Position numbers and translations under genes: made by a program
NCBI GenBank assembly: GCA_900539915.1
Contig: UQDU01000007.1
Span: 5,264-69,263 of the forward strand
Reading direction: 5' to 3'
From: an uncultured Bacteroidales bacterium
GTDB taxonomy: Bacteria; Bacteroidota; Bacteroidia; Bacteroidales; Muribaculaceae
Length of the DNA stretch: 64,000 nucleotides
Notes under the pieces: generated by a model
What the model saw: only the letters and a program-made list of their open reading frames with translations
What the model was told of the DNA's origin: nothing
The model's database searches: none
In this document: piece after piece, positions 12,714-64,000 of the stretch
How the letters are laid out: every line of letters begins with the position of its first letter
Position numbering within the stretch: position 1 is the stretch's first letter

Positions 12714-13142
12714 TCAGTATATGAGCATCCAGTAGGCTCCGCAGTCGCGCAGGTAGCGTATCCGTTCCCACGGTATCAGTTCGTCAGCCGGGACACGCCT
12801 GTCGGGGTCGTGACGGTACTCTATCCTGACGCTGCGGCCGCGGCATATGACGAGGCGGTGGGGCAGCACTGCGCGTGCTGTCTCGGGCTTGAGGGCGTAG
12901 CTGTAGAAGATTATCAGTATGACCGACGGGATGAGCACCATTATCAGCATAAGGGCCACAAGAGCCCATCGGATGTCATGCAGAGCCAGCGCGACTGCCG
13001 CGAGGACTATCGGGGGTGCTGCCAGTATGATGCCCCATATCCGCAGCCAGCGACCGAGCATATGGCGTACCATGGCGCCTACGGGCACTTTGAAGTAATC
13101 GGTAGTGATGCAGCCTTCGGTCACCATATCTCCTTTTTCCAT
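12714..13142 (-). CDS. hypothetical small membrane protein (2 TM)
   Basis: 142-aa ORF with two hydrophobic helices. Its 3' end overlaps the upstream membrane-protein gene by 22 nt. Confidence 0.45.
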   Translation of the reverse strand: MEKGDMVTEGCITTDYFKVPVGAMVRHMLGRWLRIWGIILAAPPIVLAAVALALHDIRWALVALMLIMVLIPSVILIIFYSYALKPETARAVLPHRLVICRGRSVRIEYRHDPDRRVPADELIPWERIRYLRDCGAYWMLIY

Positions 13143-15289
13143 TTCTGAGGCAACAATGATATGATTTTATCCACAAGCCGAGGCATCCACCGCCGCTTGT
13201 AGTGGAATACAATCGCGGCCACCAGCCATAAGGCCAAGAATGAGACGGCGATGGAGCCCCATAGCTCCGCAGAAAATCCCTGTGCTTTAAATAACCGTGC
13301 CTCAAAACCGTACATCAGGAAGCCCACTTTGCTGTCCTGGAGCAGGTAGCATCCCAAGGAGGCCACTCCGAGAAGATTGACAATTTTGTTGTGAAACGAG
13401 AAACGGATGAAAAAACACACGAAGAAAAATGCGCTCAGATTCACCAGCAGACCCTGTCGCTGATAGGGGGAGAATAGAGATTTCTGCATGTCAGGCTCGT
13501 CTACAGCTGGGAGGTGAAGCACTCCCTGCAAGGTCGCAAACAACAGGAATCCGGCAATGAGGCTCCACAGCGGCATGGCGCGGAGCGCATGCTCTCTTGC
13601 CATCCACCATCCCACCACGTAGAGCCATAGGAAATAGAACATGACATCGGCAGGGTACAGGTAGTCTTGGTAGTCGAATCCCCAGTAGTTATACATGTCA
13701 TGCAGAGGGTTCTGGCCTAACCATCCGCAATAGATTCCGGCACACGTGAGCATGAGCGTCAGGAGTCTCAGCGACTTAAGGTCAAAGCGGCTCAGGCCTT
13801 TGTTGACCAGAGGGGTGAGGGTAATCAGCAGCAGATATGCCTTGATAAACCAGTAGTGGCTGCTGCCTATGGGGAATATGATGGATTTGACAAGGTCGGT
13901 CAGGGTGTGGTATTCGGCGTGGGTCTTGCCGAGCAGTGCGATAATCGCGAGTGAAAGCAGATTGAACAGCAGGACTGTCAGCCATATGTTGATGACCGAT
14001 TTCCACGTGAGACGCAATCCCATGACACCTAACAGCATCACGTAAACCGACACGCAACACGAGTTGATGCCGAAGATGATTATGCCCCAGGGGTCATACA
14101 GGGAGAAGTCGGGCGCGGTCTTGGAAAATGTAAGATGCTCCATCAATATCATCGACATGGCCAGGATGCGTGCAAGCTCGATAGAGGAGTTGCGGCGCGA
14201 TGAACGTGCCACGGTAGGGGTTGGGACGAGCGGAACAGCCGGGGCGGTGGCGCGTAATGCCGGAAGGCGTCGGGCTATGAAGACTGTAATCAGTAACAGA
14301 GGCTCGTAGATTAGCCATGAGATTACAGCGGCAAATGCTGTAGTCGACAGGCAGATGGTTACCACTGTGACAAGGTTGGCTTTAATCGACAGCTCTATGT
14401 CGTTCATCAGATGTGGGGCGGCAGGTCCCGTTATCAGCATGAACGTGCCGAGGATGGCGGTGGCGAGCCACGGTGGCCCCTGATACGCCCGTCGGTGCCG
14501 TGCGGCATATGCAAAAAGCAGGATGGAAGCCGTCAGGCTGAGGGCATTGTTGGCATGCCCGGAAGTGAACCAATATGTCCACGGTCCGCTCCGCCAGTCG
14601 TGGAGGTAGATTACTGCCCCAAGAACCGTGATGCACGCCACGCTGCCCATGACAAGCCATCGTGAAGGAAACCGTTTGAACCCTTGTGACGAATTAATGT
14701 AATATCCGGTTACATACAGGTATATGAAGTAGTATAGATTCCACTGCCACCATGCCAGATAATTCTCTGCCAGCCATCCGCATAGGATGACTGAAGCGGT
14801 CAGGATTATGACGAACGACCTTAGCTGGAATCTGTCAAGCGCGGCAAGCCCCCTGTTGATGAGCGGAGAGAGTATCAGCAGGAAGAGGTATCCGTGTATC
14901 AGCCGATACGGCATGGATGATACAGGGAAGAATATCATGGTAGCAGCCGTGGTCAGCAGATTTCGGTGGCTGGACGTGGCTGTGTCCCATGCCTCTATGT
15001 GCGAGCCGGCCACAGATACCAGCGCGAGATTGACCGCGTCATATGACAGCACCACTAATATCAGCATTATCAATGATTTCCATGACAGCCGCAGTCCGCA
15101 GCATCCGATGGTAAGGCAGAGGAGGTTGATGCCGATACCGAGGATGTTCTCCGCAAAGAGCAGCGTCGACGATGAGGCGTCCCAGCTGCTTCCGACGTTG
15201 AGGACTGCATACATGGCCACCGTCATCGTCACGGCGATGGCGGCTGTCACGGCAATGGATTCCTGTCTGAACGGCTGTGGGAGGGTCAT
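13121..15289 (-). CDS. polytopic membrane protein with internal tandem duplication (two homologous halves of about 360 aa; acyltransferase-3/EpsG-like)
   Basis: 722 aa. FFPVSSMPYRLIHGYLFLLILSPLINRGLAALDRFQLRSF...CGWL in the first half aligns with IFPIGSSHYWFIKAYLLLITLTPLVNKGLSRFDLKSLRLL...CGWL in the second. Confidence 0.6.
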   Translation of the reverse strand: MTLPQPFRQESIAVTAAIAVTMTVAMYAVLNVGSSWDASSSTLLFAENILGIGINLLCLTIGCCGLRLSWKSLIMLILVVLSYDAVNLALVSVAGSHIEAWDTATSSHRNLLTTAATMIFFPVSSMPYRLIHGYLFLLILSPLINRGLAALDRFQLRSFVIILTASVILCGWLAENYLAWWQWNLYYFIYLYVTGYYINSSQGFKRFPSRWLVMGSVACITVLGAVIYLHDWRSGPWTYWFTSGHANNALSLTASILLFAYAARHRRAYQGPPWLATAILGTFMLITGPAAPHLMNDIELSIKANLVTVVTICLSTTAFAAVISWLIYEPLLLITVFIARRLPALRATAPAVPLVPTPTVARSSRRNSSIELARILAMSMILMEHLTFSKTAPDFSLYDPWGIIIFGINSCCVSVYVMLLGVMGLRLTWKSVINIWLTVLLFNLLSLAIIALLGKTHAEYHTLTDLVKSIIFPIGSSHYWFIKAYLLLITLTPLVNKGLSRFDLKSLRLLTLMLTCAGIYCGWLGQNPLHDMYNYWGFDYQDYLYPADVMFYFLWLYVVGWWMAREHALRAMPLWSLIAGFLLFATLQGVLHLPAVDEPDMQKSLFSPYQRQGLLVNLSAFFFVCFFIRFSFHNKIVNLLGVASLGCYLLQDSKVGFLMYGFEARLFKAQGFSAELWGSIAVSFLALWLVAAIVFHYKRRWMPRLVDKIISLLPQKWKKEIW

Positions 15290-27623: not shown

Positions 27624-27652
27624 ATCTTATAAGTCTTATAAGAAATTACCCC
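27624..27652. repeat. CTTATAAG tandem 9-mer repeat array (family C), 2 units ending AAATTACCCC
   Basis: ATCTTATAAGTCTTATAAGAAATTACCCC directly after the TolC stop. Confidence 0.7.
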
Positions 27653-28709: not shown

Positions 28710-28725
28710 CCCCCCCTCAAAAAGC

Positions 28726-28771
28726 CCTATAAGACTTATAAGATTTATAAGACTTATAAGACCTTATCCCC
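28726..28771. repeat. CTTATAAG tandem repeat array (family C), 4 units ending ACCTTATCCCC
   Basis: CCTATAAGACTTATAAGATTTATAAGACTTATAAGACCTTATCCCC, between the HlyD and ABC-2 genes. Confidence 0.75.
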
Positions 28772-28786
28772 ACTCATAATAGTCCT

Positions 28787-31168: not shown

Positions 31169-31254
31169 TCGTATAATTCTTATAATTCGTATAATTCTTA
31201 TAAGACTTATAAGATTTATAAGAATTTATAAGATTTATCCCCCCGGATTACCCC
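31169..31254. repeat. CTTATAAG-type tandem repeat array (family C), about 8 units ending GATTTATCCCCCC
   Basis: CGTATAATTCTTATAATTCGTATAATTCTTATAAGACTTATAAGATTTATAAGAATTTATAAGATTTATCCCCCC. Confidence 0.75.
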
Positions 31255-38500: not shown

Positions 38501-40195
38501 GCCAAGGACGTTACCGCTGTCAGCGAATCGTTCATCGAGAACTACGGCGGTCTATTCACCAACATCGAGGATGCCCATGTGGCTCTCCACGCTGTGCCTA
38601 AGAACGATGCTCTCGTCGGTCACAACAGCCTCCGCCAGTGGTACATGGATCATGGCGACAAGTTTGCCGACGGCACTGTCAATCCTTTCAACCCCAACAG
38701 CCATCTTGCCGTAGGTAATGCAAAGGCTGACGGCACCACTTACAGCACTCCTGAAGAGGTGCACCCGATGCTCCGCAGTGCGAACCCCGTTGCATCTACT
38801 GATGGCTTCCGTAACGACTCCGAGCTTAACAACGCATGGTGGAACCACAATGCCCTTGTTGCTCCCGAGTTCCACACGGCTGACCAGATCAAGGGTACTC
38901 TTACTATCGAGGGCGGTAAAGTCACAGACTTTACTCCCGGTGCCAACAAGCCTAAGAACCATCGCTCATTCTGGGCCGGTGTCAAGGTTGACAACAATGA
39001 TGCCTACAAGAAGTGGGAAGGCGGTTATATCCTCAAAGCTCCTGAAGGTTTTGACGTGGATATCCGCGATCCGAAGCACGGCTACTATGGCCAGAGCAAC
39101 CACTTCTCCAAGAAGCGTAGTGGATTCTACCACGGCGAGATGCCTCTTAATCTCAACGATATTGTCGCCGTGTTAGGTAAAGGTCAGGGTGCCGGATCGG
39201 ATGCTTTCGTCGCTGATGACCGTACAGGTCTCTATGTCGATGCTCAGGCTGTGTATGACAAAGCGAAAGAATTCCATCCTTACGACGTGGCTATCACTGA
39301 AGCTGTCAATGAAGGACAGAGCTCTGTAACTGTGGCTGGTGTGACATATCCGATCAACTGGAACACGGATTACATCTGGGACTACGATCCTATATATGCC
39401 ATCCGCGAGCAGGTCGCTTTTGAAGCAGCCGATGGAGCTGAGGCTCCTGCCGATGCCCTGTTTGAAGCAGCCGGACATATGTTCTTCAAGGTGCGCCACG
39501 TCAACCATGAATCATGGTTTGTACCCGGTGCCAATGTGGCCGAAGGCGATCTCAAGACCCAGCCTCTCTGGCCTGCCTTCAAGGATATAGCTGGTTTCCC
39601 GGCTTCCGGCTCAGCCAAGGAGAAGGACGAATTCGTAATGAATCAGCTGCGTATGAACTTCAGTGACTACTGTCCGCTGGTCTACGACGTACGCTACACC
39701 TATCCGTTCCTGACCTCTGATCAGTATGTGACAGCCGAGAACTACAAGGCTCCCGAGACCAATGCCCGTGCACGCAAGGCTCGTTCTGCCGAGTATTCAT
39801 CTATCTCTGATGCGATGAATGCAGCGCAGACCGCTAAGGAGACTGCTCCCGGTGTGGTTACCGATATCGTAGCCCGTGACAAGGGCCGTGTATCGTTCTT
39901 CGGTGCCTCTGAGCCCAGTAAGGTAGTCCCCACCGCCATCAGCGATGTCAACGACGATATCCGTGGCAAGGGATTCAGCATCGTCTACAACCGTGCAGCA
40001 GGCACTGTCACAGTCAAGGCCGAAGGCAAGAAGCTGGAGAATGCCGCTGTATATGACGCTACGGGTGCTTCGCTCGTTGCCGGCGCTTACGCTGACCGCA
40101 TCGACGAGAACACCATCGTGCTTGATGTACGTAACATCGCTCGCGGTGCCTACGTGGTAGGTACCAACCTCGGCGGTGCCAAGTTCATGAAATAA
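32564..40195 (+). CDS. very large (2543 aa) secreted protein with signal peptide and T9SS (Por) C-terminal sorting domain; T9SS cargo of unknown function
   Basis: N-terminal signal peptide (MKKFLTFFAMMFALLGFSPAIHA). The last about 80 aa match the Por_Secre_tail pattern (ENAAVYDATGASLV...IVLDVRNIARGAYVVGTNLGGAKFMK*). The single ORF is uninterrupted and very rich in Thr, Ser, Asp, Gly, Tyr and Trp. Confidence 0.75.
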   Translation: MKKFLTFFAMMFALLGFSPAIHADWTFYVDTSNNGWSDAYIQVGNDTAWYSDYHGNVVPNTNGKVYKFYVQGWSDLTRIHFAPTPGHLTQKTDGTNGNGSYTIGNPENLWKAVNNRCYVLNSGNGSSSCRDNYTPPTLPYIFIDGASHPFEAEGSNWVYKIDASTAAKEFRLQKDDNTTALGTNVSSVALVPNGCGYTATTNISSYTSTSLSLYGNFSGRLTVDAGYVYTLTINSGLSQLTMSKTETKPATPVLPPTATDNKIVIPAVSGAQIYYTETTEGDPSTSTWTPYPEGGIPVENHHMTIRAAAYKAELGDKAWSDVTVQKTYAYVVNVVPNIEIDVHTGIATITADLSKIPASANAKILYSCGPAAPGKVYSAPVDMATECTVEGATRYPIKALVRAWGGGDDYTTKVENQTIDSDVRNAQWVGPAAVRRICLWSYSEDGNPVKLDEFSKQADGSYTLSYSPVSGTDSSKANQRYFIRVVMNHDEPNDVVSDTGGTFYSLSTETNGVTTVASGVESIGYHNFTPSASDARGMFFAGTDRDLVNLTLKGELTEYTLPSSTTKCKRFVPESILPTWVADASIKSVELRDANNNLLCTLTQNTGTGETNYWTGITTVALPKAADNSKDEKFHFVAETKDGTKYYSLGTDSNYWLSYGRYDETTSPKPSTSSSSGYYFCVKETSAIAQVAIAFDGTTASKISISPYTDTKKMDISGDPQAPAIYGYGSEVGSWDNAREFNQSPTLDGWVYTFIATQSTGEFLIRGSKNHLYAPIGLGFDSPTNVWRQVPDSYTDAASKKRAAAKISGLQVGARYRFILQDVGGQVQISIEALPESVRSIKKAELYSYVSGTSTKLLDMAYDKEMDVWNTVGTYHWDGNLGGEDDTTSPRLYVKYYVGYENDQPEEYSVRYVGWTETSSDYTLQSTSQYSNKPVTFTSLEEDALKTFKVRPSGKYYVQVAFDKSNLKAGWIGMSTSMLAPSIYPEVETKSWSLSDENVMKTNEHKYFYMSALQNDNRLSPEWELIKQADGKYVLDNFVVIPGAEFRIREVYKKSNGKFEVHDWGYDNVNDVKAAAFGLTSDTQAAADSKPSADFAISTDKSRGIFWNIGATMVRLEFDPSASAPLKAIIDFSYPSTLKQAPKPGFPWVGLTSSNITAASGTNQTYSYAGDLGIALGTDGLTQETLDKMGMTVAELNGAFTNAFIQWTTDGKPYVYDGHVNEIAENTNTEVYYIPGKPEEVLFATTKKPQAGQVMSSTILPPRVSPQLHMTTVRGVATPSAESLTFTYHGVTTPKDDPSIVLSQNGTSVDENTRFAVYEIQNVELQGMFKVFTGYGARQYGKTTNGLSWYANWGVGSATDGQGYAFQEITKTSQLPLNGGGALTKSDGTAERGYDDKTYEDKGPWNYYERQDNAAGNYFLLADRKYVPSLKFYLALDCDYPTNRNKFHNRYTKSGRGDFNDYYNVGRNYSWLSVNLTAERPIITLDKVGANTGHVRYWLNEDKDETKPVVKSFRTLFVRIPDEHLADWDFEPTTCPVKWDTANNKAVLVKDGTEIDITSSTYGGEFHQNVNQRWIEPTTYDRANLPAGTYVAYIYDVDYDTSDGEYDIKDTDLWNTSRRIRVFAVPQGTVRGWQRVGARDDKKVYHPIIRVAPDVSAVIANLDGEATIDKVSATVTVTNIGPNTHFWDVNGNPLPGGEHWGAEAADKSGIYVTWGNQYHAATETEPEQEGVATVHYPAGYFSADRQNAANFDVCDTRINFMTNLAIQTQIEGGVPSTPYDVDVFTYMPAGKLYGKLVPRKQGDSFNYLAVTAEDGLPADEDQDDYARIRYVDKNDDNAICYIANVQHSDVTAKVWYVSPTGENIELFTTPLDMKSNPKDLSSENHGVYTAKRLKIGGIPYVADTDTDIDETPLSVRKKQTADFIVELTYTTGGFEPWQSRQIPTSLSLDAELLTSPRQGLRDVLTQEDADNRKVDGSGVAKDVTAVSESFIENYGGLFTNIEDAHVALHAVPKNDALVGHNSLRQWYMDHGDKFADGTVNPFNPNSHLAVGNAKADGTTYSTPEEVHPMLRSANPVASTDGFRNDSELNNAWWNHNALVAPEFHTADQIKGTLTIEGGKVTDFTPGANKPKNHRSFWAGVKVDNNDAYKKWEGGYILKAPEGFDVDIRDPKHGYYGQSNHFSKKRSGFYHGEMPLNLNDIVAVLGKGQGAGSDAFVADDRTGLYVDAQAVYDKAKEFHPYDVAITEAVNEGQSSVTVAGVTYPINWNTDYIWDYDPIYAIREQVAFEAADGAEAPADALFEAAGHMFFKVRHVNHESWFVPGANVAEGDLKTQPLWPAFKDIAGFPASGSAKEKDEFVMNQLRMNFSDYCPLVYDVRYTYPFLTSDQYVTAENYKAPETNARARKARSAEYSSISDAMNAAQTAKETAPGVVTDIVARDKGRVSFFGASEPSKVVPTAISDVNDDIRGKGFSIVYNRAAGTVTVKAEGKKLENAAVYDATGASLVAGAYADRIDENTIVLDVRNIARGAYVVGTNLGGAKFMK

Positions 40196-40200
40196 TCCTC

Positions 40201-40250
40201 AGGCCCGGCATGCCGGTGACATGTAGCTGACATGCCGGGCCTTAGATTAT
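40201..40250 (+). terminator. GC-rich hairpin downstream of the very large gene
   Basis: AGGCCCGGCATGCCGG-loop-CATGCCGGGCCT. The T-tract is weak, as is usual in Bacteroidetes. Confidence 0.45.
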
Positions 40251-40261
40251 ATGATATGTAT

Positions 40262-40453
40262 GTAGGGCCGCGGTCCGCAGCAATGTCACTAACATAAGGA
40301 ATACGCTCATTGTGCAGTAGGGACATGCCATGGCATGTCTGCTAACGCAATACTCTTCAATAGCATGGCTTTAGGCGACATGCCATGGCATGTCCCTACT
40401 ACCTGACAACGCTATTCAGGCTTTAACGACTGCTTAAGTTAGTCACATTACTG
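40262..40453. repeat. composite palindromic MITE/REP-like element (family A core GTAGGGACATGCCATGGCATGTC in inverted pair, plus family B module)
   Basis: GTAGGGACATGCCATGGCATGTC (40317-40339) and its inverse GACATGCCATGGCATGTCCCTAC (40377-40399) flank a 37-bp spacer. Flanking CAATGTCACTAACATAAGGAAT and GACTGCTTAAGTTAGTCACATT modules recur elsewhere. Confidence 0.8.
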
Positions 40454-40694
40454 TCCGCAGCGGCCATCGCTCCCGAAAAATATTTAACACGATAAGAAAA
40501 AATACAGTTGATAAGTTTAGTAATATAGTTTGTTCATTAGCACAGAAAGTTAAATATTTCCAACCCCGTCGGCGGAGGATTCCCAACTCCGCCGGCACTA
40601 ACTCCCGGCGCGGGGGCTGTCGTGATGACAGCCCCCGCGTTGCGTTGGTGGGGAGTCTTTATAAGATTTCCGCGATTTCCGCGTTATAATTATA

Positions 40695-43600
40695 ATGCGT
40701 ACTCCGTGTAGACATCCCGTTATCGCCGCCATGGCTGTCATCGCCGTGACGGGCATCGTCGCGCTCCTGTCGGGATGCTCCCTTAAGAAAAACACGGCGG
40801 CCACGCGCCACTACATGGCGTTTATCACGCGCTACAATGTCTATTACAACGGTGACGAGCACTATAAATACACCCTCCACGAGCAGGAGACGTCATATAA
40901 GGATGACCTCTCGCGCACGCTCTACCTCTCGCCCATAGAGGCCAAGGCCGACCCCAAGGCTCCGCAGCCCTCGGGCAGCTTCCAGCGGAGCATCGACAAG
41001 GCTGCCAAGGCCATACAGATACGCTCCATCAAGCGCAAGCCCAAGAAGCAGCCCGGCAAGTCATATGACGAGGCTTACAAGGAGTGGATGCGCCGCTCGG
41101 AGTACAACCCCTTCCTCCACAATGCGTGGATGCTGATGGGGCGTTCGCAGTATCACAACGGCGATTTCACCGGCGCGGCTGCGACTTTCTACTACATATC
41201 CAAAAACTTCCGCTGGCTCCCCGATGTGGTCACCGAGGCGAAGCTGTGGCAGGCACGTGCCTACCTCGCCGACGACTGGACCTACGAGGCCGACATGATT
41301 ATCTCGCGCATCAAGCCGGAGCAGCTTGTCACCAAGACGCTCCGCCGCCTCTATGCCTTCGACTATGCCGACCTCTATATCCGCACAGGCCGCTACGCTG
41401 AGGCGGTGCCCCACCTGCAGACGCTCATCTCCCTGAGCGATGCCCACCAGCGCATGCGCCTCAACTATCTCTTGGGGCAGCTACTGACGCGCCTCGACCG
41501 CCGCGAGGAGGCCTACAAGGCTTTCGGGCGTGCCGGCCGCTCGGCTTCGGCTGACTATGCCATGCAGTTCAACTCTCGCATACGCCAGAGCGAGGTGTAT
41601 CAGGGCGACAACATAGCCCCCGAGGTCAAGGCCCTGCGGCGCATGGTGCGCTACGACCGCAATGCCGAGTATCTCGACCAGGTGTATTACGCCATAGGCA
41701 ACCTCTACCTGAGCCGCCGCGACACCACGGAGGCGATAGCCAACTACCGCCTCGCCGTCAGCAAGAGCACGCGCTCGGGCTATGACAAGGCTCTGGCAAA
41801 TCTGGCTCTGGGCAACCTCTACTTCGACCTACACCGCTATGACCTGGCGCAGCCCTGCATAGCCGAGGCAGTGCCGCAGCTCCCCGAGGATTTCCCGGGA
41901 CTTGACTCCATACGCATGCGCAGCGATGTGCTCGACGAGCTGTCGACCTACGCCCAGAACGTCCACCTCCAGGACTCCCTGCTGGCTCTCGCCGCCCTCA
42001 GCCCCGAGGAGCAGAGGGCGGTGTGTGAGCGCATGGCCCGCGAGTATGCGGACCGCCAGAAGGAGGAGGAGCAGCGCATACAGCGCGAGGCGCAGCGTGC
42101 CGAGCAGGAGGCCAACCAGCCCGTGGTGGCCCCCGACGACAATGTGGCCAACATACAGCGCATCAACACCGACGATTCGTGGTACTTCTACAATCCCACC
42201 TCGGTGGCGCAGGGCAAGAAGCAGTTCCAGCGTCTGTGGGGTGCGCGCCGCAACGAGGACAACTGGCGACGCCGCAACAAGAGCGACTTCTCCATGTCGG
42301 ACTTCGACCGCCCCGACGGCGAAGATGATGATAACGCAGAAGATGGGATGAACCCCGGTGAATCCGCTCCCGATGGCGAGGGCAATGACGAAACCGGCTC
42401 TGACGCTCTCCCCCTCACCGACGACCCCACCAACGCCGAATACTACCTCAAGGACATACCGCAGACCGACCTCGAGAAGGCTCAGGCTGCCGACATAGTC
42501 CAGGAAGGACTCTATAACATGGGTCTCATACTCAAGGACAAACTCGGCGACTCACACGCGGCCATGGAGGAGTTTGACGACCTGATGAAGCGTTTCCCCG
42601 ACAATATATACCGCCTTGACGTCTACTACAACATCTACCTGATGATGGTACATGACGGCGACATGGCCGCTGCCGAGCGTTACCGCCAGCGCATCCTCGC
42701 GGAGTTTCCCGAGAGCCAGCTCGGCCAGGCGATGCGTAACCCCGACTATCTGGAGAATCTAAAGGCTATGGATGCGCGTCAGGAGCAGCTCTATGAGCAG
42801 ACATGGCAAGCCTATCTTGACAACCGCAACGGCGAGGTGCAGGAGGCCTGCCGCACCATGCAGCGCGACTTCCCGTTGAGCAAGATCATGCCCAAGTTCA
42901 TGTTTCTGGACGCTCTGACCTATGTCACGGAAAACAAGCCGGAGGAATTTACGGCGCGTCTGCGCGAACTGCTTGAAAAGTACCCCGACACCGACCTGAC
43001 CCCCATGGCGAGTGCCTATCTCAAGGGTATGGCATCGGGGCGCAAGCTCCATCAGGCGGCTACCAACGTGCGCGGCATGCTCTGGAACACGCGCCTGATT
43101 TCTACCGGCGACACCACCACCGTCGACCTTGACGCGCCTCTCAAGGTGACCCTTGACCCCTCCGCGCCGCAGCTGATGGTGTATCTTTATCCGCTTGACC
43201 GCGTGAATCCGGCGGCTCTGCTCTACGAGGTGGCGCGATTCAACTTCTCCACCTTCGCGGTGCGTGACTACGACCTGGAGCAGATGACATTCGGGCCGCT
43301 CGGGGTGACCATAGTCAAGGGTTTCGCCAATGCGCGTGACCTCGAGCGTTACCGCGCCGCCATGGAGCGGTCACGGTTCCGTCTGCCGCAGTCAGTGCGT
43401 CCCGTGGTCATCAGCGAGGCCAACTTTGACACCCTCCTCAAGGAGGGACGCTCCTTTGAGGAGTATTTCGCTGCCGTAGGCGAGCAAGCCATCGACTTCA
43501 CCCATGAAGCCGTCCTCCCCTCCGCCTCAGATTACCCCTCCGCCCCCGAGATGTACGATGCCTACACCCCCAAGGAGCCGATAGCGACCACCCCCGGGAC

Positions 43601-44072
43601 CGCTCCCGAACCCGTTCCCGGGACAGCCACCCAACCTGTAGGGACGCACCCCGGTGCGTCCGCCCCCGAGCAGCAAGGAGCGACCCCCACGGAACCACAA
43701 ACCCCCGAAACCGCCCAGGAAGCATTCGAACGCATCTTTGACGCCATCCCCCTGACACCGCCCTCCCCAAAAGCAGAGCCGACCCCTGTAGGGACGCACC
43801 CCGGTGCGTCCGCTCCCGTCCAGGAGATGCCCGAGCCGACCCCCGAAGCAGAGCCACCGCTGGCTCCCAAAACAAAGGAGCCGACCCCCGAGGAGCTCCC
43901 GACCCCTGACACGCATACTCCGCAATCACTCCCGACCATCTTCGACGAGGACCCGGATTATTCCGAGCCCGTAGCCCCGGGCTTCCTCCCCACGCGCCCA
44001 GGAGTCAAGGTCCCGATAGCCGTCCCTGACATCCCCGAAGGCACCGAAGGTGACGACGAAGAGGAATACTGA
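40695..44072 (+). CDS. TPR-repeat lipoprotein, SprE/PorW-like (candidate T9SS component), with Pro/Thr/Glu-rich acidic C-terminal tail
   Basis: 1125 aa with a lipoprotein signal (LLSGCS). The N-terminus HYMAFITRYNVYYNG resembles the start of the SprE/PorW family. There are multiple TPR-like repeats, and the tail of about 190 aa is low-complexity. Confidence 0.5.
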   Translation: MRTPCRHPVIAAMAVIAVTGIVALLSGCSLKKNTAATRHYMAFITRYNVYYNGDEHYKYTLHEQETSYKDDLSRTLYLSPIEAKADPKAPQPSGSFQRSIDKAAKAIQIRSIKRKPKKQPGKSYDEAYKEWMRRSEYNPFLHNAWMLMGRSQYHNGDFTGAAATFYYISKNFRWLPDVVTEAKLWQARAYLADDWTYEADMIISRIKPEQLVTKTLRRLYAFDYADLYIRTGRYAEAVPHLQTLISLSDAHQRMRLNYLLGQLLTRLDRREEAYKAFGRAGRSASADYAMQFNSRIRQSEVYQGDNIAPEVKALRRMVRYDRNAEYLDQVYYAIGNLYLSRRDTTEAIANYRLAVSKSTRSGYDKALANLALGNLYFDLHRYDLAQPCIAEAVPQLPEDFPGLDSIRMRSDVLDELSTYAQNVHLQDSLLALAALSPEEQRAVCERMAREYADRQKEEEQRIQREAQRAEQEANQPVVAPDDNVANIQRINTDDSWYFYNPTSVAQGKKQFQRLWGARRNEDNWRRRNKSDFSMSDFDRPDGEDDDNAEDGMNPGESAPDGEGNDETGSDALPLTDDPTNAEYYLKDIPQTDLEKAQAADIVQEGLYNMGLILKDKLGDSHAAMEEFDDLMKRFPDNIYRLDVYYNIYLMMVHDGDMAAAERYRQRILAEFPESQLGQAMRNPDYLENLKAMDARQEQLYEQTWQAYLDNRNGEVQEACRTMQRDFPLSKIMPKFMFLDALTYVTENKPEEFTARLRELLEKYPDTDLTPMASAYLKGMASGRKLHQAATNVRGMLWNTRLISTGDTTTVDLDAPLKVTLDPSAPQLMVYLYPLDRVNPAALLYEVARFNFSTFAVRDYDLEQMTFGPLGVTIVKGFANARDLERYRAAMERSRFRLPQSVRPVVISEANFDTLLKEGRSFEEYFAAVGEQAIDFTHEAVLPSASDYPSAPEMYDAYTPKEPIATTPGTAPEPVPGTATQPVGTHPGASAPEQQGATPTEPQTPETAQEAFERIFDAIPLTPPSPKAEPTPVGTHPGASAPVQEMPEPTPEAEPPLAPKTKEPTPEELPTPDTHTPQSLPTIFDEDPDYSEPVAPGFLPTRPGVKVPIAVPDIPEGTEGDDEEEY

Positions 44073-44079
44073 GATACAA

Positions 44080-44166
44080 TTTCGTATAAATCGTATAAGT
44101 CGGATAAGTCTTATAAATCTTATAAGAAATTATACGACTTATAAGAATTATAAGACTTATCCGACC
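44080..44166. repeat. CTTATAAG-type tandem repeat array (family C), about 8 units
   Basis: TTTCGTATAAATCGTATAAGTCGGATAAGTCTTATAAATCTTATAAGAAATTATACGACTTATAAGAATTATAAGACTTATCCGACC, directly after the stop of the TPR lipoprotein gene. Confidence 0.75.
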
Positions 44167-44171
44167 TGTCC

Positions 44172-44395
44172 CAATGTCACTAACTTAATCAGTCGTTAAT
44201 GCTTGACTGGGGTTCTTATGTAGTAGGGACATGCCATGGCATGTCGCCTAAAGTCATGCTAATGAGAGTGTTGCGTCAGCAGACATGCCATGGCATGTCC
44301 CTACTACGATGTATGCATTCCTTAAGTGAACAGCATTGTGGCATGTCCCTACTACGATGTGTACATTCCTTATGTTAGTGACATTGCGACCTGTC
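44172..44395. repeat. composite palindromic MITE/REP-like element cluster (family A inverted pair plus a third half-copy, and family B modules)
   Basis: GTAGTAGGGACATGCCATGGCATGTC...GACATGCCATGGCATGTCCCTACTAC...GGCATGTCCCTACTAC, with CAATGTCACTAACTTAATCAGTCGTTAA and CATTCCTTATGTTAGTGACATTG modules. The cluster lies between convergent genes. Confidence 0.8.
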
Positions 44396-44411
44396 GCTGC
44401 CCTCAAGCCAG

Positions 44412-46322
44412 TCAGCCGAGCTTGTCAAGCTCGGCAAGCCACAGGCGCGAGCTGGCATCGGAGGGCATGCGCCAGTCGCCGCGTGGCGAGAGGCACACGC
44501 TGCCCACCTTGGGGCCGTCGGGCAGGCATGACCGCTTGAACTGTTGCGCAAAGAAGCGGCGGTAGAATGTGCGGAGCCACTTCAGTATCGTAGCCGGGTC
44601 ATGTTTGCCGTCAAATGCCAGGCAAGCCATGGCGTATATGCGGCGCGGACTGTGGCCGTAGCGCAGCATGTTGTAGAGATAGAAATCGTGGAGCTCGTAG
44701 GGACCTACGAGGTCTTCGGTCTTCTGGGCGATGTCGCCGTGTTCGTCGGCAGGGATTAGTTCGGGACTGATCGGGGTGTCGATGATGTCGAGCAGAGCGT
44801 CGCGCACCGCCTTGCAGTCGGTCGTGTCGGCCACCTGCCGCACCAGCCGGCTCACGAGCGTCTTGGGCACACCGGCGTTGACACCGTACATCGACATGTG
44901 GTCGCCGTTGTAGGTGGCCCAGCCGAGAGCCAGTTCCGAGAGGTCGCCCGTGCCGAGCACTATCGCCCCCTCGCGGTTGGCTATGTCCATCAGCAGCTGC
45001 GTGCGTTCGCGGGCCTGGGAATTTTCGTAAGTGACATCGTGGACCTGCGGGTCGTGGCCTATGTCGGCGAAGTGCTGCATCACCGCCGGGACTATCGACA
45101 CCTCACGGGAGGTCACACCAAGCTGCTCCATCAGCGTCAGGGCGTTGGTATGGGTGCGCCCCGTGGTGCCGAATCCGGGCATAGTGACCCCGATGATGCC
45201 TTTGCGGTCAAGGCCGAGGCGGTCAAAAGTCCTGACAGCCACCAACAGCGCCAGAGTGCTGTCAAGTCCGCCGCTGATGCCCACCACGAGCCTGGTGCCG
45301 TGGATGAAGCTCAGGCGGCGCGCCAGGCCGGCGGTCTGTATGTTGAGTATCTCCTCGCACCGCTCCGCGCCATGCTCGTCATCGGCCGGCAGGAAGGGGT
45401 AGGGGTTGACCGGGCGGAAGCGCGGAGTGAAGCCGCAGTCGTCATCTACGGCGTCACACGGCGACAGGGAACCTGTCTCTGTGACCTTTATGCCTTCAAG
45501 CTCGCGCTCGGCGCAGTCGCCGAAGGTGGTGTAGTGCAGACGGTCGTGGCGCAGCGCGGCGATGTCGATGTCGGCTATCACCAGCTGCTCGTCGGTGGTC
45601 CACCGCTGTTTCTCGGCGATGACATGGCCGTTTTCGGCCACTATGCCCTTGCCGTCAAACACCAGGTCGGTCGATGATTCGCCGAATCCGGCACTGGTGT
45701 AGACGTAGCCGCACAGGCAGCGCGATGACTGCTGGGTGACGAGTGAGCGCAGGTAGCCGTATTTGCCTATCACATCGTCGCTTGCCGAGAGATTGAATAT
45801 CACCTCGGCCCCGGCCATGGCGAGGCGTGTCGACGGGGGCACGGGAGCCCACAGGTCTTCGCATATCTCTATGCCGATTTTTACGCCGTTGACGCTGAAG
45901 AGGGTTATCGTGTCGCACGGTTTGGCCGGACGCCACCAGCGGCGTTCGTAGAACTCGTTGTAGTTGGGCACGTAGGTCTTGCGCACCTCCGTCATGCCGA
46001 GGCGCGTGATGAGCGCGGCGCAGTTATACATCTCGCCGCCGTCGATACGCGGATAGCCCACGATTATGGACGTGTCGCCCCATGTGGCAGCCTCCGCCAT
46101 CAGGCGGTGCAGACCGTCCATGGCGGCCTGTATGAGAGTCGAGTCGTGGAAAAGGTCGGCACATGTATATCCCGTGATGCACATCTCGGGGAATACCGCC
46201 ACCTCCACCCCTTCGGCAGCGAGGCGCGGTATGAAACTGAGTATCGCATTGACGTTGGCATCGACATCGCCCACCTCCACCGGGGGCACCACCGCAGCCA
46301 CGCGGAAATATCCGTTTTTCAT
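44412..46322 (-). CDS. nadE: glutamine-dependent NAD+ synthetase
   Basis: 636 aa. N-terminal nitrilase-like glutaminase domain (EMCITGY) plus a C-terminal NAD synthetase domain (GISGGLDSTL). Confidence 0.9.
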   Translation of the reverse strand: MKNGYFRVAAVVPPVEVGDVDANVNAILSFIPRLAAEGVEVAVFPEMCITGYTCADLFHDSTLIQAAMDGLHRLMAEAATWGDTSIIVGYPRIDGGEMYNCAALITRLGMTEVRKTYVPNYNEFYERRWWRPAKPCDTITLFSVNGVKIGIEICEDLWAPVPPSTRLAMAGAEVIFNLSASDDVIGKYGYLRSLVTQQSSRCLCGYVYTSAGFGESSTDLVFDGKGIVAENGHVIAEKQRWTTDEQLVIADIDIAALRHDRLHYTTFGDCAERELEGIKVTETGSLSPCDAVDDDCGFTPRFRPVNPYPFLPADDEHGAERCEEILNIQTAGLARRLSFIHGTRLVVGISGGLDSTLALLVAVRTFDRLGLDRKGIIGVTMPGFGTTGRTHTNALTLMEQLGVTSREVSIVPAVMQHFADIGHDPQVHDVTYENSQARERTQLLMDIANREGAIVLGTGDLSELALGWATYNGDHMSMYGVNAGVPKTLVSRLVRQVADTTDCKAVRDALLDIIDTPISPELIPADEHGDIAQKTEDLVGPYELHDFYLYNMLRYGHSPRRIYAMACLAFDGKHDPATILKWLRTFYRRFFAQQFKRSCLPDGPKVGSVCLSPRGDWRMPSDASSRLWLAELDKLG

Positions 46323-46350
46323 AATCGTAAGAGGGTTTTATAGGGTGTGG

Positions 46351-46372
46351 GGGGACATGCCTCGGCATGTCC
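46351..46372. repeat. short variant family-A palindrome GGGACATGCCTCGGCATGTCC
   Basis: Near-perfect palindrome in the 58-bp spacer between the GT2 stop and the nadE start. Confidence 0.6.
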
Positions 46373-46380
46373 GCGAGGGG

Positions 46381-47394
46381 TCAGTCGAGTTTGCTGAACT
46401 CCCTGACTCCGTGTAGATAATAGTCGGTGAGTATGTTGCGCCGTCCCCACGGCAGCGAGGACAGCAGATTAGTCTCGGGGGACTTCACATCGCGGTAATG
46501 CTCACGTGCCATGCGGCGGAAATCGCGGTGCGCCCCGATGATGGCCGAGGCATTGCGGAAATCGAGTGTGAGCATGAATTTTGCCCAGGCGAGTGTGTCA
46601 AGCAGACGGCGGCGCAGCAGGAAACCGCGTCGCTCGCGTCGCGGCAGATTCTTGTAGAGCATCAGCAGCGAATTGCGGAAATTGAGGTAGGTCTTGCGTG
46701 GCGATGATGCCGGCAGACTCCCTCCGCCGAGATGGTAGACGGTGGCCTGCGGCACGGCGGCAATGGCGTAGCCCATAGATTTCAACCGCCAGCAGAGGTC
46801 TATCTCCTCCATGTGGGCGAAGAAACGGCCATCCAGGCCTCCGGCATCGAGAAATGCCTGGGTCCTGACCATCAGGGCCGCCCCCGTGGCCCAGAAAATC
46901 TCCATGACGGAGTCATACTGGCCGTGGTCGGTCTCCACGGTGTCAAAGATGCGTCCGCGGCAGTAGGGGTAGCCGTTGCGGTCAAGGAAGCCACCGGCTG
47001 CGCCGGCATACTCGAATTTCGTCGGGTCGGCCACGCTCAGTATCTTGGGCTGCACCGCCGCTAAGTGGGGATGCGTCTCCATGTAGCGGTAGAGAGGGGT
47101 CAGCCAGTCGTCCTTGACCTCGACATCGCTGTTGAGGAGCACCGTGTATCGGCTTCCGGCGCGGCGTATGGCCTCGTTGTAGCCCTCGGCATATCCGAGA
47201 TTGCGGTCAAAGCGGAGCACCCTGACCGACGGGAACTCCTCGGCGAGCACTTCGAGCGAGTCGTCGGTGCTGCCGTTGTCGGCCACGATGATGTCGGCTG
47301 TCTCCGCCGGAGTGTGGCGCACCACGCTCGGCAGATAGCGGCGCAGCAGCTCGGAGCCGTTCCAGTTGAGTATTATGACTGCTACAGGTTTCAT
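46381..47394 (-). CDS. family 2 glycosyltransferase
   Basis: The start is taken at MKPVAVIILNWNG, which gives ATGA coupling with the upstream gene. GT-A fold with a DxD motif (ADNGSTDDS) and VLLNSD. Confidence 0.8.
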   Translation of the reverse strand: MKPVAVIILNWNGSELLRRYLPSVVRHTPAETADIIVADNGSTDDSLEVLAEEFPSVRVLRFDRNLGYAEGYNEAIRRAGSRYTVLLNSDVEVKDDWLTPLYRYMETHPHLAAVQPKILSVADPTKFEYAGAAGGFLDRNGYPYCRGRIFDTVETDHGQYDSVMEIFWATGAALMVRTQAFLDAGGLDGRFFAHMEEIDLCWRLKSMGYAIAAVPQATVYHLGGGSLPASSPRKTYLNFRNSLLMLYKNLPRRERRGFLLRRRLLDTLAWAKFMLTLDFRNASAIIGAHRDFRRMAREHYRDVKSPETNLLSSLPWGRRNILTDYYLHGVREFSKLD

Positions 47395-49558: not shown

Positions 49559-49610
49559 GACCCTGCGTGTGCCGAATGTATTCTGGTCTATCACTGATGC
49601 AAATATACGC

Positions 49611-49643
49611 AATAAGTCTTATAAGTTTATAAGTCTTATAATG
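49611..49643. repeat. CTTATAAG tandem repeat array (family C), 3 units
   Basis: AATAAGTCTTATAAGTTTATAAGTCTTATAATG, in the mtaB-like upstream region next to the rpsA terminator. Confidence 0.7.
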
Positions 49644-49688
49644 CAAAAAGAGAGTCAGGGGCGACGCATGACGCGCCGCCCCTGACAG
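49644..49688 (-). terminator. rho-independent terminator downstream of rpsA
   Basis: On the minus strand: GTCAGGGGCGgcgcgtcatgcgtCGCCCCTGAC followed by TCTCTTTTTGC. Confidence 0.8.
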
Positions 49689-52213: not shown

Positions 52214-52262
52214 AACATCATCGACAGATGATGTTTTTCTTTTTTTTTATTTTTATTTTCTT
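52214..52262 (+). terminator. rho-independent terminator downstream of the DUF695 gene
   Basis: AACATCATC-gaca-GATGATGTT followed by a long T-rich run. Confidence 0.75.
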
Positions 52263-52272
52263 TCCTTTGTGG

Positions 52273-52375
52273 CATTTCTTCCGACTTAATGGGGGTTTCT
52301 TCCGACTTAACCCCGGTTTCTTCCGACTTAATGGGGGTTTCCTCCGACTAAACCCCGGTTTCTTCCGACTTAATT
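52273..52375. repeat. five direct tandem repeats of about 20-22 bp (TTTCTTCCGACTTAA alternating with GGGGG and CCCCGG), iteron-like
   Basis: GGGGGTTTCTTCCGACTTAA alternating with CCCCGGTTTCTTCCGACTTAAT across 52273-52375. Confidence 0.85.
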
Positions 52376-52765
52376 CTTGCGATGCGGATTGAGGCGGTCG
52401 GCTCTCTTTAGGCTCGAGTGTCGGATGACTGTATTATATAGCGAGAGGGCACCGGAGCTGGTTGCCAGTCCGATGCCCTCTGTGTAGCTACCACACCAAA
52501 GGATGCGATGAAACTCCGAATGACAGGATTTGAGTGCTCGCCGTCCTTTGTAATCCTCCGTGGCCCTGAGGCCAACCCTTGTGGGTGAGGCCCGCCATTG
52601 GGCGGTTACGCTTTGTCTCGGTATTTCAGAAAAATTTGATGAGTTTCCCAATCTACTTTGATGTGGCGTTTATCTTGATAACACAAAGATATGCGTTTTG
52701 GTTGAATTATCCAATTTTTGGATGAAAAAACATCTGAAAAGCTGCGGTTTCGGCTGTCAGAGGTG

Positions 52766-63061: not shown

Positions 63062-63182
63062 TTGCAGGGACATGCCATGGCACAATGTCACTAACTTAAG
63101 CAGTCGTTGACACTTGAATGGCATGTCCCTACTGCGATGTGTACATTCCTTAAGTTAATGGCATTGTGCCATGGCATGTCGC
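63062..63182. repeat. composite palindromic MITE/REP-like element (families A and B)
   Basis: GGGACATGCCATGGCA-CAATGTCACTAACTTAAGCAGTCGTTGA...GGCATGTCCCTACTGCGATGTGTACATTCCTTAAGTTAATGGCATTGTGCCATGGCATGTC. Confidence 0.8.
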
Positions 63183-63510: not shown

Positions 63511-63650
63511 TACATGGCGATGCCATGACACAGTGCCGTTAACTTAAGCAGTCTTTAATGGCATCTCCCTACTACATAATAACGCAACTCCTTAAGTTAG
63601 TGACAGTCATGCCGCGGCATGTCCCTGTGTGGGATGTGCCGCGGCATGGG
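63511..63650. repeat. degenerate composite palindromic repeat element (families A and B)
   Basis: CGTTAACTTAAGCAGTCTTTAATGGCATCTCCCTACTAC...CTCCTTAAGTTAGTGACAGTCATGCCGCGGCATGTCCCTG...GTGCCGCGGCATGGG. Confidence 0.65.
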
Positions 63651-63676: not shown

Positions 63677-64000
63677 TTATTTGGTGGTGATGTTGATGAT
63701 GGTCTTGCCGTCACGCTTGTCAATCGTCATCGATTCTATTGATGACGAGGGGATGTCCTTGAGGTTTGCTCTGGGGATTTCCTCTCCGTTGACTTTTATG
63801 ATGGCATCGGCAAGTGCTGAGGGATTGTTGTTGGCGGTGCCATTTTCGCTTTTTTGCAGCTTTATGACGTTCATGTCAGGGAGCGTGTTTTGCGAGTGCG
63901 TTGACTGTTCCTGCTTGGGTGCCGCAACTGCTTGGGTCTCTTTCGGCGCCATGAAATTGATGGGCAATGCATAGTAGACGGCGACAGGTTTGCCGTTAAG
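63677..64000 (-). CDS. hypothetical protein, C-terminal part (the gene continues beyond the window end)
   Basis: The minus-strand frame is open to the window edge (...LNGKPVAVYYALPINFMAPKE...TIINITTK*). Ser/Asn-rich. Confidence 0.4.
   Translation of the reverse strand, partial: LNGKPVAVYYALPINFMAPKETQAVAAPKQEQSTHSQNTLPDMNVIKLQKSENGTANNNPSALADAIIKVNGEEIPRANLKDIPSSSIESMTIDKRDGKTIINITTK

Follow-up and report, generated by a model that had tools for sequence, protein, structure and literature searches.

What are the palindromic repeats that lie in several intergenic spacers of a Muribaculaceae genome, and what put them there? The stretch that raises the question (the window in what follows) is 64 kb long, with a G+C content of 55.9%. 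A sequence-only reading had described a family of nested elements in it at five loci or more, resembling MITEs (miniature transposable elements with inverted repeats) or repetitive extragenic palindromes (REPs), and had offered non-autonomous mobile elements among their possible identities. That identification is borne out by target-site duplications, by full-length parents and by insertion polymorphism between strains. We conclude that the elements are very probably nested MITEs of an insertion sequence (IS) of the IS4 family (IS4 subgroup) living in Muribaculaceae; such elements are a known kind of selfish DNA.

Two repeated modules were counted in a search of the window. The 18-bp palindrome GACATGCCATGGCATGTC occurs exactly at 40322, 40377, 44228 and 44282, and variants with 2 and 3 mismatches stand at 46354 and 63606, respectively; these are six matches against 0.05 expected from shuffled sequence. 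Extended arms GTAGTAGGGAC...GTCCCTACTAC were found around it, and the palindromes stand in inverted pairs with the spacing first read from the letters (about 35-37 bp; 37 nt in element A and 36 nt in element B, see below). The second module, CAATGTCACTAACTTAAG, has seven copies with at most two mismatches, against 0.03 expected, and GGCATGTCCCTACTAC has eight. It is this second module, a transposon end (CAATGTCAC...TTAAG), and not the palindrome, that sets the limits of the mobile unit. An nhmmer profile of the element matched four loci only, A (40281-40450), B (44172-44386), C (63083-63166) and D (63531-63608). All four are non-autonomous copies, measuring 78-170 bp (215 bp for the composite B), with 18-bp terminal inverted repeats (TIRs) at both ends; no credible open reading frame (ORF) was found inside units A-D. 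Every palindrome doublet in the window sits within an IS4-type MITE. Four of the five or more proposed loci are thus confirmed by the profile, and 46351-46372 drops out: it is only a solo REP-like hairpin variant, GGGACATGCCTCGGCATGTCCG (46352-46373, between a glycosyltransferase gene and nadE), with no TIR, no GTAG tag and no match to the nhmmer profile.

The consensus element is ~168 bp long (long form 167-170 bp), has no coding capacity and is bounded by the 18-bp TIR CAATGTCACTAACTTAAG. The long form reads, in order, left TIR CAATGTCACTAACTTAAG, CAGTCGTTAA with ~20 nt, GTAGTAGGGACATGCCATGGCATGTC, a conserved spacer of 36-37 nt, GACATGCCATGGCATGTCCCTACTAC, ~13 nt and right TIR CTTAAGTTAGTGACATTG; as cargo it carries a REP-like palindrome with a GTAG tag, present twice as an inverted doublet. 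In the window this form is represented by A, in minus orientation, and by the first 167 bp of B. Both align end to end with copies on unrelated contigs (L133, L180 and L189; related loci in other assemblies are cited by such numbers) and with L096. C and D are short forms, 84-bp deletion derivatives.

MITE A (170 bp, minus strand; nhmmer E=3e-54; predicted RNA fold -73.9 kcal/mol, z -9.05) has its TIRs at 40281-40298 (CAATGTCACTAACATAAG) and 40433-40450 (CTTAAGTTAGTCACATTA), around a cargo of GTAGGGACATGCCATGGCATGTC, 37 nt and GACATGCCATGGCATGTCCCTACTAC (40317-40402). The left half of the hairpin that it entered (GTAGGGCCGC..., 40262-40280, plus strand) contains the left target duplication CGGTCCGCAG (40271-40280), and the right duplication CTGTCCGCAG (40451-40460, plus strand) is identical to it at 9 of 10 positions. 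In B, the complete 167-bp long form (44172-44338, plus strand; TIRs 44172-44189 and 44321-44338, the latter the variant CTTAAGTGAACAGCATTG; nhmmer E=1e-57) carries its palindrome doublet at 44220-44307, with 26-nt arms that are 100% complementary. It is followed by the right-end stub, ~47 bp, of an older outer copy (44339-44386, plus strand), made up of half a palindrome, 13 nt and the TIR CTTATGTTAGTGACATTG and corresponding to positions 120-167 of the nhmmer profile; the composite as a whole (44172-44386) has a predicted fold of -98.8 kcal/mol (z -9.95). The duplication, CGACCTGTCC (44162-44171, plus strand) and CGACCTGTCG (44387-44396, plus strand), encloses the entire 215-bp composite and is again 9/10 identical. 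C, the 84-bp short form (63083-63166, plus strand; TIRs 63083-63100 and 63149-63166), contains neither the left palindrome nor the spacer, and only half of the right palindrome. Its flanks are 10/10 identical (TGCCATGGCA at 63073-63082 and at 63167-63176), and it is exactly centred in the family's own palindrome, which reads GACATGCCATGGCA, the 84-bp element, then TGCCATGGCATGTC. The left half of this palindrome (AGGGACATGCCATGGCA; GTAGGGACATGCCATGGCA in the conspecific L096) lies at 63066-63082 and the right half (TGCCATGGCATGTC) at 63167-63180, both on the plus strand; the supposed variant palindrome copy at 63066-63182 is actually one palindrome split by the inserted element. D (78 bp, short and degenerate; 63531-63608, plus strand; TIRs CAGTGCCGTTAACTTAAG at 63531-63548 and CTTAAGTTAGTGACAGTC at 63591-63608) is abutted by REP-like hairpins (GTCATGCCGCGGCATGTCCC ... 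GGGATGTGCCGCGGCATGGG, 63604-63650) that are kept in L096/L097 and are probably the remains of its target. The suggested check for target-site duplications has thus given 10-bp duplications at A, B and C, and perfect duplications of 10-11 bp flank dozens more copies of the MITE and of the IS.

The reconstructed targets are the centres of ~18-bp palindromes, for example GACATGCCATGGCATGTC, GACGCGGCATGCCGCGTC, GACGCTCCGTGGAGCGTC and GGCGAGCTTCCACTCGCC. Among 153 distinct flanks, the frequency of G at position -14 is 0.56 and that of C at -12 is 0.60, and the self-complementarity of the duplicated 10-mer is 4.46/10 versus 2.49/10 for random 10-mers. A's target was a GTAG-tagged stem-loop (TGTAGGGCCGC-GGTCCGCA-GCGGCC). 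Like C, a MITE of another kind, which measures 290 bp and shares the ends, is centred in the family's palindrome in a related metagenome-assembled genome (MAG; L059). A GTAG/CTAC-tagged hairpin half is present on at least one flank in nine of ten Muribaculaceae copies of the full-length IS described below. In four of the ten (L234, L236, L237 and L242) the hairpin centre is duplicated, with 10-11 bp that match on both sides. In the other six the hairpin halves on the two flanks are unlike, or one flank has an unclear hairpin, which would be expected from recombination between IS copies or from chimeric assembly. The palindrome type carried by the MITE is therefore also its preferred insertion target, which explains the nesting.

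Potential parents were found outside the window. A scan of metagenomes with the TIR gave at least 120 stretches, often located at the end of a contig; hundreds of related copies are present in gut metagenomes, and together with full-length IS4-family parents these answer the question whether the family occurs elsewhere. Inverted TIR pairs 1.48-1.84 kb apart enclose a single ORF in L131, L140, L145, L115, L126, L198, L203, L206 and L217. The three ORFs scanned (those of L131, L140 and L145) matched Pfam DDE_Tnp_1 (PF01609) and NCBIfam transpos_IS4_1 (NF033592) above the cut-offs. A further transposase, P0285 (446 aa; UniRef taxon Muribaculaceae; source name 'IS4 family transposase [uncultured Duncaniella sp.]'; precomputed PF01609 hit), belongs to an IS of 1485 bp that has perfect TIRs in 10/10 places examined (L234-L243). 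All four transposases, each from another contig than the window's, contain the Y(2)R(3)E(6)K motif. A parent IS with these ends thus exists in Muribaculaceae/Duncaniella, and homologues of the tetratricopeptide repeat (TPR) gene in the window are named Duncaniella or Muribaculaceae type IX secretion system (T9SS) proteins. The identical TIR is common to at least three transposase lineages that are only 25-63% identical (ISs of 1480-1839 bp); the best plasmid matches, for example ISPa1635, are only ~29% identical. IS4-subgroup ends have the signature -AATR--------WTW---- and direct repeats of 10-13 bp (PMC2266710). In the TIR, positions 1-5 (CAATG) and 14-16 (TTA) agree with this signature (Table 1 of PMC2266710), and the observed duplications of 10-11 bp lie within the range. 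By every feature of a MITE that can be tested here the elements are MITEs, and their ends are those of the IS4 subgroup.

One TIR delimits several size classes (103, 124, ~168, 191, 221 and ~282-293 bp). Other MITE families with the identical IS4-type TIR and different cargo were observed in L181 (7456-7646), L103 (888-1054) and L059 (2014-2307). The L181 element carries a GTAGGGTCGCGGCATGCCGCGACC doublet as cargo, and its own insertion site is a GACGCGGCATGCCGCGAC palindrome; a different palindrome, GTCGCGGCATGCCGCGAC, is here found both within the element and as its target, which suggests that the arrangement of carrying one's own target type evolved more than once. Neither palindrome nor TIR had a match in viral contigs, so there is no link to phages.

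Comparison of strains supplied the empty and filled sites that the sequence-only reading had proposed to look for. At both A and B, L220 and L221 (99% TPR-protein identity) do not differ from the window. L223 and L224, independent assemblies of one strain with 96% TPR-protein identity, have an extra 168-bp MITE (L223 1865-2032) in A's left palindrome, flanked by a perfect duplication of GGACATGCCA; deleting this MITE and one copy of the duplication gives the window sequence. The site is thus filled in L223/L224 and empty in the window, L220 and L221. In the L223 strain a further complete copy, of 169 bp, is nested in B's right palindrome. The B of the window is best read as an outer copy plus a nested copy, from which recombination then lost the duplicated part and left the 47-bp stub; L223 has intact nested intermediates. 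L226, which is from another species (87% identity), has no TIR element at the A or B sites and carries GTAG-REP hairpins instead. Conspecific assemblies include GCA_949054915.1 and GCA_948667295.1. The orthologues of C and D in two conspecific MAGs (L096/L097) are of the long form (168 bp for C). In the window both are missing 84 bp, and the ends of the deletion fall within a 5-bp repeat, ATGGC. Such short forms were seen only in the window strain, 2 versus 37 long-form occurrences in all loci. An assembly artefact was considered for C and D and is unlikely: no more than 5 bp of repeat is shared, and this assembly contains A and B in intact form. Relative to L096, the right flank of C has ~69 unrelated nt in its place. 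Between close strains, copies have been gained, lost and truncated with the flanking genes unchanged.

These data are consistent with the following model. A full-length IS that has the same ends would provide a DDE/YREK transposase in trans, and this enzyme would bind the TIRs and insert the unit through staggered cuts ~10 bp apart; for this step, and for cut-and-paste chemistry in general, we draw on the biochemistry of the IS4 family. Insertion strongly favours GC-rich hairpins that read GNCR-N10-YGNC; it takes place at their centre and duplicates the central 10 bp (occasionally 11 or more). Each copy brings two fresh target hairpins with it, and copies therefore come to lie inside one another. 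The nests were then probably trimmed to mosaics by slippage or recombination involving the repeated modules; B's 47-bp stub and, in C and D, the 84-bp deletions are examples. An active parent IS presumably resides in this very genome. We further propose, as a tentative idea that is plausible if somewhat short of probable, that the MITE is a 'target-carrying' element: its cargo would be two copies of the transposase's preferred hairpin, each insertion would create more safe sites at which the parent IS and additional copies could land, BIME-like mosaics (bacterial interspersed mosaic elements) would grow autocatalytically by self-nesting, and the fate of a DDE transposon would be tied to a GTAG-REP family in Muribaculaceae.

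Several observations weigh against the MITE interpretation. There is no IS4-type transposase gene in the 64-kb window. The flanks of D are degenerate (7/10, with a 1-nt offset), and the length of the duplication around the nested B copy of L223 is ambiguous (11-14 bp). Simple chance slippage does not account for an identical 84-bp deletion at both C and D in one strain. Finally, relatives commonly have solo palindromes, and doublets, that lack TIRs, and the palindrome's own spread therefore needs a second mechanism.

The last point bears on the best-surviving alternative, in which the palindrome doublet is itself the mobile unit, moved by a Y1 tyrosine transposase of the REP-associated type (RAYT) in the manner of REPs, REPINs (REP doublets forming hairpins) and BIMEs, with the outer inverted repeat incidental. 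GC-rich palindromes of 20-40 bp, tagged with GTAG/CTAC and often arranged as inverted doublets, are the definition of REPs (PMC3733652). The palindrome GTAGGGACATGCCATGGCATGTC(CCTAC), in doublets with spacers of 36-37 nt, fits the structural REP criteria of that study, and its tag and its REPIN-like inverted doublets both speak for such a mechanism, as do the solo palindromes and doublets without IS4 ends in relatives, which include the orthologous A and B sites of the sister species. Solo palindromes of this kind occur in many MAGs: the perfect 28-mer GTAGGGACATGCCATGGCATGTCCCTAC is present in 22 of 91 loci among the matches listed, and the palindrome 16-mer has matches on at least six contigs of one related MAG. 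Doublets in close relatives have unrelated spacers of 32-44 nt, other outer arms and no IS4 ends.

The loci with the 28-bp GTAGGGACATGCCATGGCATGTCCCTAC come from MAGs of several phyla, for example L031, L038, L039, L047 (labelled Nitrospiria), L045 (Sericytochromatia), and L032 and L070 (Rikenellaceae), and some of the copies stand between an A-run and a T-run. This distribution may reflect horizontal spread, a common enzyme specificity or mis-binned contigs, which are possible wherever MAGs carry taxonomic labels. A second repeat family built on the same palindrome was observed in L003, L004, L008, L023, L078 and L090 (CAMQYL01 MAG, Bacteroidales bacterium M7); its arms, a conserved GGGTGTTGCAGAACT...GTAGGGACATGCCATGGCATGTC and the complement, enclose a 32-44-nt spacer that is unrelated between copies.

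REPs also occur within a gene. The porW/sprE-like TPR ORF (40695-44072, 1125 aa; gene callers take a later start) contains GTAG-tagged REPs in frame at 43638-43661 and 43788-43811, in the disordered C-terminal linker of its product, where GTAGGGACGCACCCCGGTGCGTCC is translated twice as PVGTHPGASAP. The 87% identical L226 orthologue has other REPs at ~5429, 5600 and 5642, encoding DMPRHVPT (from GACATGCCACGGCATGTCCCTAC) and I/VGTYRGTS. These in-frame copies resemble the palindromic elements (RPEs) of Rickettsia and the intragenic REPs of Di Nocera 2013 (PMC3733652). Several REP core types are thus found in frame in the porW-like ORF and are unlike between the two species, which implies some REP-moving process independent of the MITE.

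A Y1 transposase is also at hand. In the conspecific MAG GCA_949054915.1 (L098), a Y1_Tnp (IS200-like) gene of 147 aa at 12780-13223 on the minus strand lies ~2.3 kb past window position 64000. It is flanked by inverted repeats of ~125 nt, each with two GTAG hairpins (GTAGAGTCCCGGAGGGAC), in a REPtron/TIRtron-like layout, and a GTAGGGATGTACCCTGGTGCATCC doublet stands just upstream of it. Its hairpins, however, are of other kinds: those flanking the gene and three Muribaculaceae homologues are GTCCCGGAGGGAC, GCCCCGGAGGGG and GTCGCGGAGCGAC. None of the four Y1_Tnp loci (L098, L227, L230 and L231/232; a small sample) is flanked by GACATGCC palindromes (GGACATGCCATGGCATGTCC hairpins), and no cognate RAYT for the palindrome was found among them. 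In NCBIfam, moreover, the Y1 protein scores as IS200 (62.8 bits, cut-off 55) and not as REP_Tyr_transpos (17.8 bits, cut-off 80). The palindrome thus has the structure of a REP, but in this small sample no association with a RAYT. Movement of the doublet by a Y1 enzyme would also leave unexplained the 18-bp TIRs common with IS4-family ISs, the 10-bp duplications and the pair of empty and filled sites. As sole explanation it fails, and we consider it improbable. That a RAYT drives a second layer, spreading the palindrome itself, is conceivable, if on the doubtful side. A different origin for the REP doublet was also tried, namely as the footprint of an IS4-type insertion into a single REP, with TIR positions 4-7 (TGTC) completing the palindrome after a loss of 3 nt. 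This predicts AC after TGTC; the doublets have GC, AG or TG, and the idea was set aside as unsupported.

Slightly less probable still, and quite unlikely, is that the repeats are structures selected by the host (terminators or attenuators, stabilisers of mRNA 3' ends, or protein-binding sites), repeated for their function and not through mobility. The predicted single-strand folds are very stable, at -63 to -99 kcal/mol with z ~-9 to -10. The sequence-only reading had placed the elements often between convergent genes; this holds for B and D, whereas A and C lie between co-directional genes. In other Bacteroidota MAGs a solo palindrome often has an A-run and a T-run beside it, like a bidirectional terminator, and at the B site of the sister species a REP doublet is followed by TTTTT. 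In the window, however, the scan for terminators and promoters (40000-46600) called no palindrome hairpin terminator-like, and no T-tract follows the stems. Nor did an Rfam scan of the window find a family at the element loci, its only hits being a Bacteroidales-1 RNA and a tRNA elsewhere. The roles first suggested as terminator, mRNA stabiliser or protein-binding site have therefore gained no direct support. Gain, loss and truncation of copies at the level of strains, with no change in the flanking genes, also sits badly with a selected structure, and any function would amount to an exaptation on a mobile element, not to another origin. We see no indication of a host function, and the elements probably have none; they may have a structural effect on transcripts. 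That the inverted repeats bound a phase-variable invertible segment of the Bacteroidales type, as 18-nt inverted repeats around a 130-bp segment upstream of a surface/secretion gene might suggest, can virtually be dismissed: the same ends bound transposase-bearing full-length ISs with direct target duplications, copies lie at many unrelated sites, no recombinase is found among the neighbouring genes scanned, and the promoter-like site at 40227-40255 is outside the segment, with none called inside it.

Other repeats lie nearby. A 9-bp unit (TTATAAGAC and variants) forms intergenic tandem arrays on both strands at 27625-27648, 28719-28780, 31172-31242, 44086-44165 and 49603-49648. The copy number varies between conspecific strains; L223 and L226 have longer arrays upstream of the TPR gene, and short-read contigs also end in such arrays. 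A 21-bp unit (TTTCTTCCGACTTAAnnnnGG, alternating ATGGGGG/ACCCCGG) is present in five tandem copies at 52254-52379, ~100 bp from the Bacteroidales-1 (6S-like) RNA gene (52483-52668, minus strand). A hairpin with a 12-bp stem, AGGCCCGGCATG...CATGCCGGGCCT, and GACATG motifs in its loop follows directly after the stop codon of the 2543-aa gene (40198-40250); it is present in all conspecific strains and absent from the sister species L226.

The MITE interpretation has practical consequences. Metagenomic short-read contigs break inside A, inside B or within the array of 9-bp repeats that directly precedes B, and contigs with the porW-like gene are often only 3.5-4 kb long; the elements explain why short-read assemblies of Muribaculaceae, an abundant family of the mouse and human gut, are interrupted at such intergenic sites. 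Nested copies and deletions differ where the flanking proteins are 96-100% identical and can serve as strain markers. The elements document a REP-targeting IS of the IS4 subgroup with several MITE size classes in Bacteroidota, for which the literature searched offers little beyond the MITEs of Porphyromonas; a 2024 review of prokaryotic MITEs includes no IS4 and, except for Porphyromonas, no Bacteroidales. They also provide a clean case for recognition of a hairpin or palindromic target by a DDE transposase, and for a transposon that carries its own target. In the literature searched we found neither the exact palindrome string nor a description of a MITE with its own preferred target as cargo. 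The understanding of the neighbouring T9SS genes is unchanged.

Among known systems, the MIC231 mobile insertion cassettes belong to the IS231 subgroup of the IS4 family and are found in the Bacillus cereus group. Like the present elements they are non-autonomous, have IS4-family ends and variable passenger DNA and are mobilised in trans, and several size classes occur here too; unlike them, MIC231 elements are larger and often carry genes, whereas ours are shorter than 300 bp, non-coding, rich in hairpins and of another subgroup. The GTAG REPs, REPINs and BIMEs (Nunvar 2010; Bertels & Rainey 2011; Di Nocera 2013, PMC3733652) share the GC-rich, tagged palindrome of 20-30 bp, the inverted doublets, the mosaic clusters and the presence of some copies in frame in genes. 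They differ in that here no RAYT is flanked by this palindrome and the neighbouring Y1 transposase has a different hairpin family. Another close system is the IS4 subgroup itself (De Palmenaer, Siguier & Mahillon 2008, PMC2266710), some members of which show a 'spectacular' specificity for left and right target arms. The end signature and the 10-13 bp repeats are the same, and its autonomous relatives of 1.4-1.65 kb have a single-ORF DDE transposase with YREK; the window copies, in contrast, have 78-215 bp and no transposase, and the ISs with these exact ends were matched here to no named ISfinder entry. REPs are already known as targets of ISRm22 (IS4 family, S. meliloti), IS1397/ISKpn1 (IS3) and IS621/ISPpu9/ISPpu10 (IS110) (Tobes & Pareja 2006, PMC1525189), and ISRm22, with 10/10 copies in REPs (PMC1525189), demonstrates that REP targeting by the IS4 family is possible. 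Our elements share with these ISs an insertion specific to repetitive extragenic palindromes. They differ in having a Bacteroidota host and in duplicating the hairpin centre (10 bp), and above all a non-autonomous derivative here carries the target hairpin itself and its copies nest in one another.

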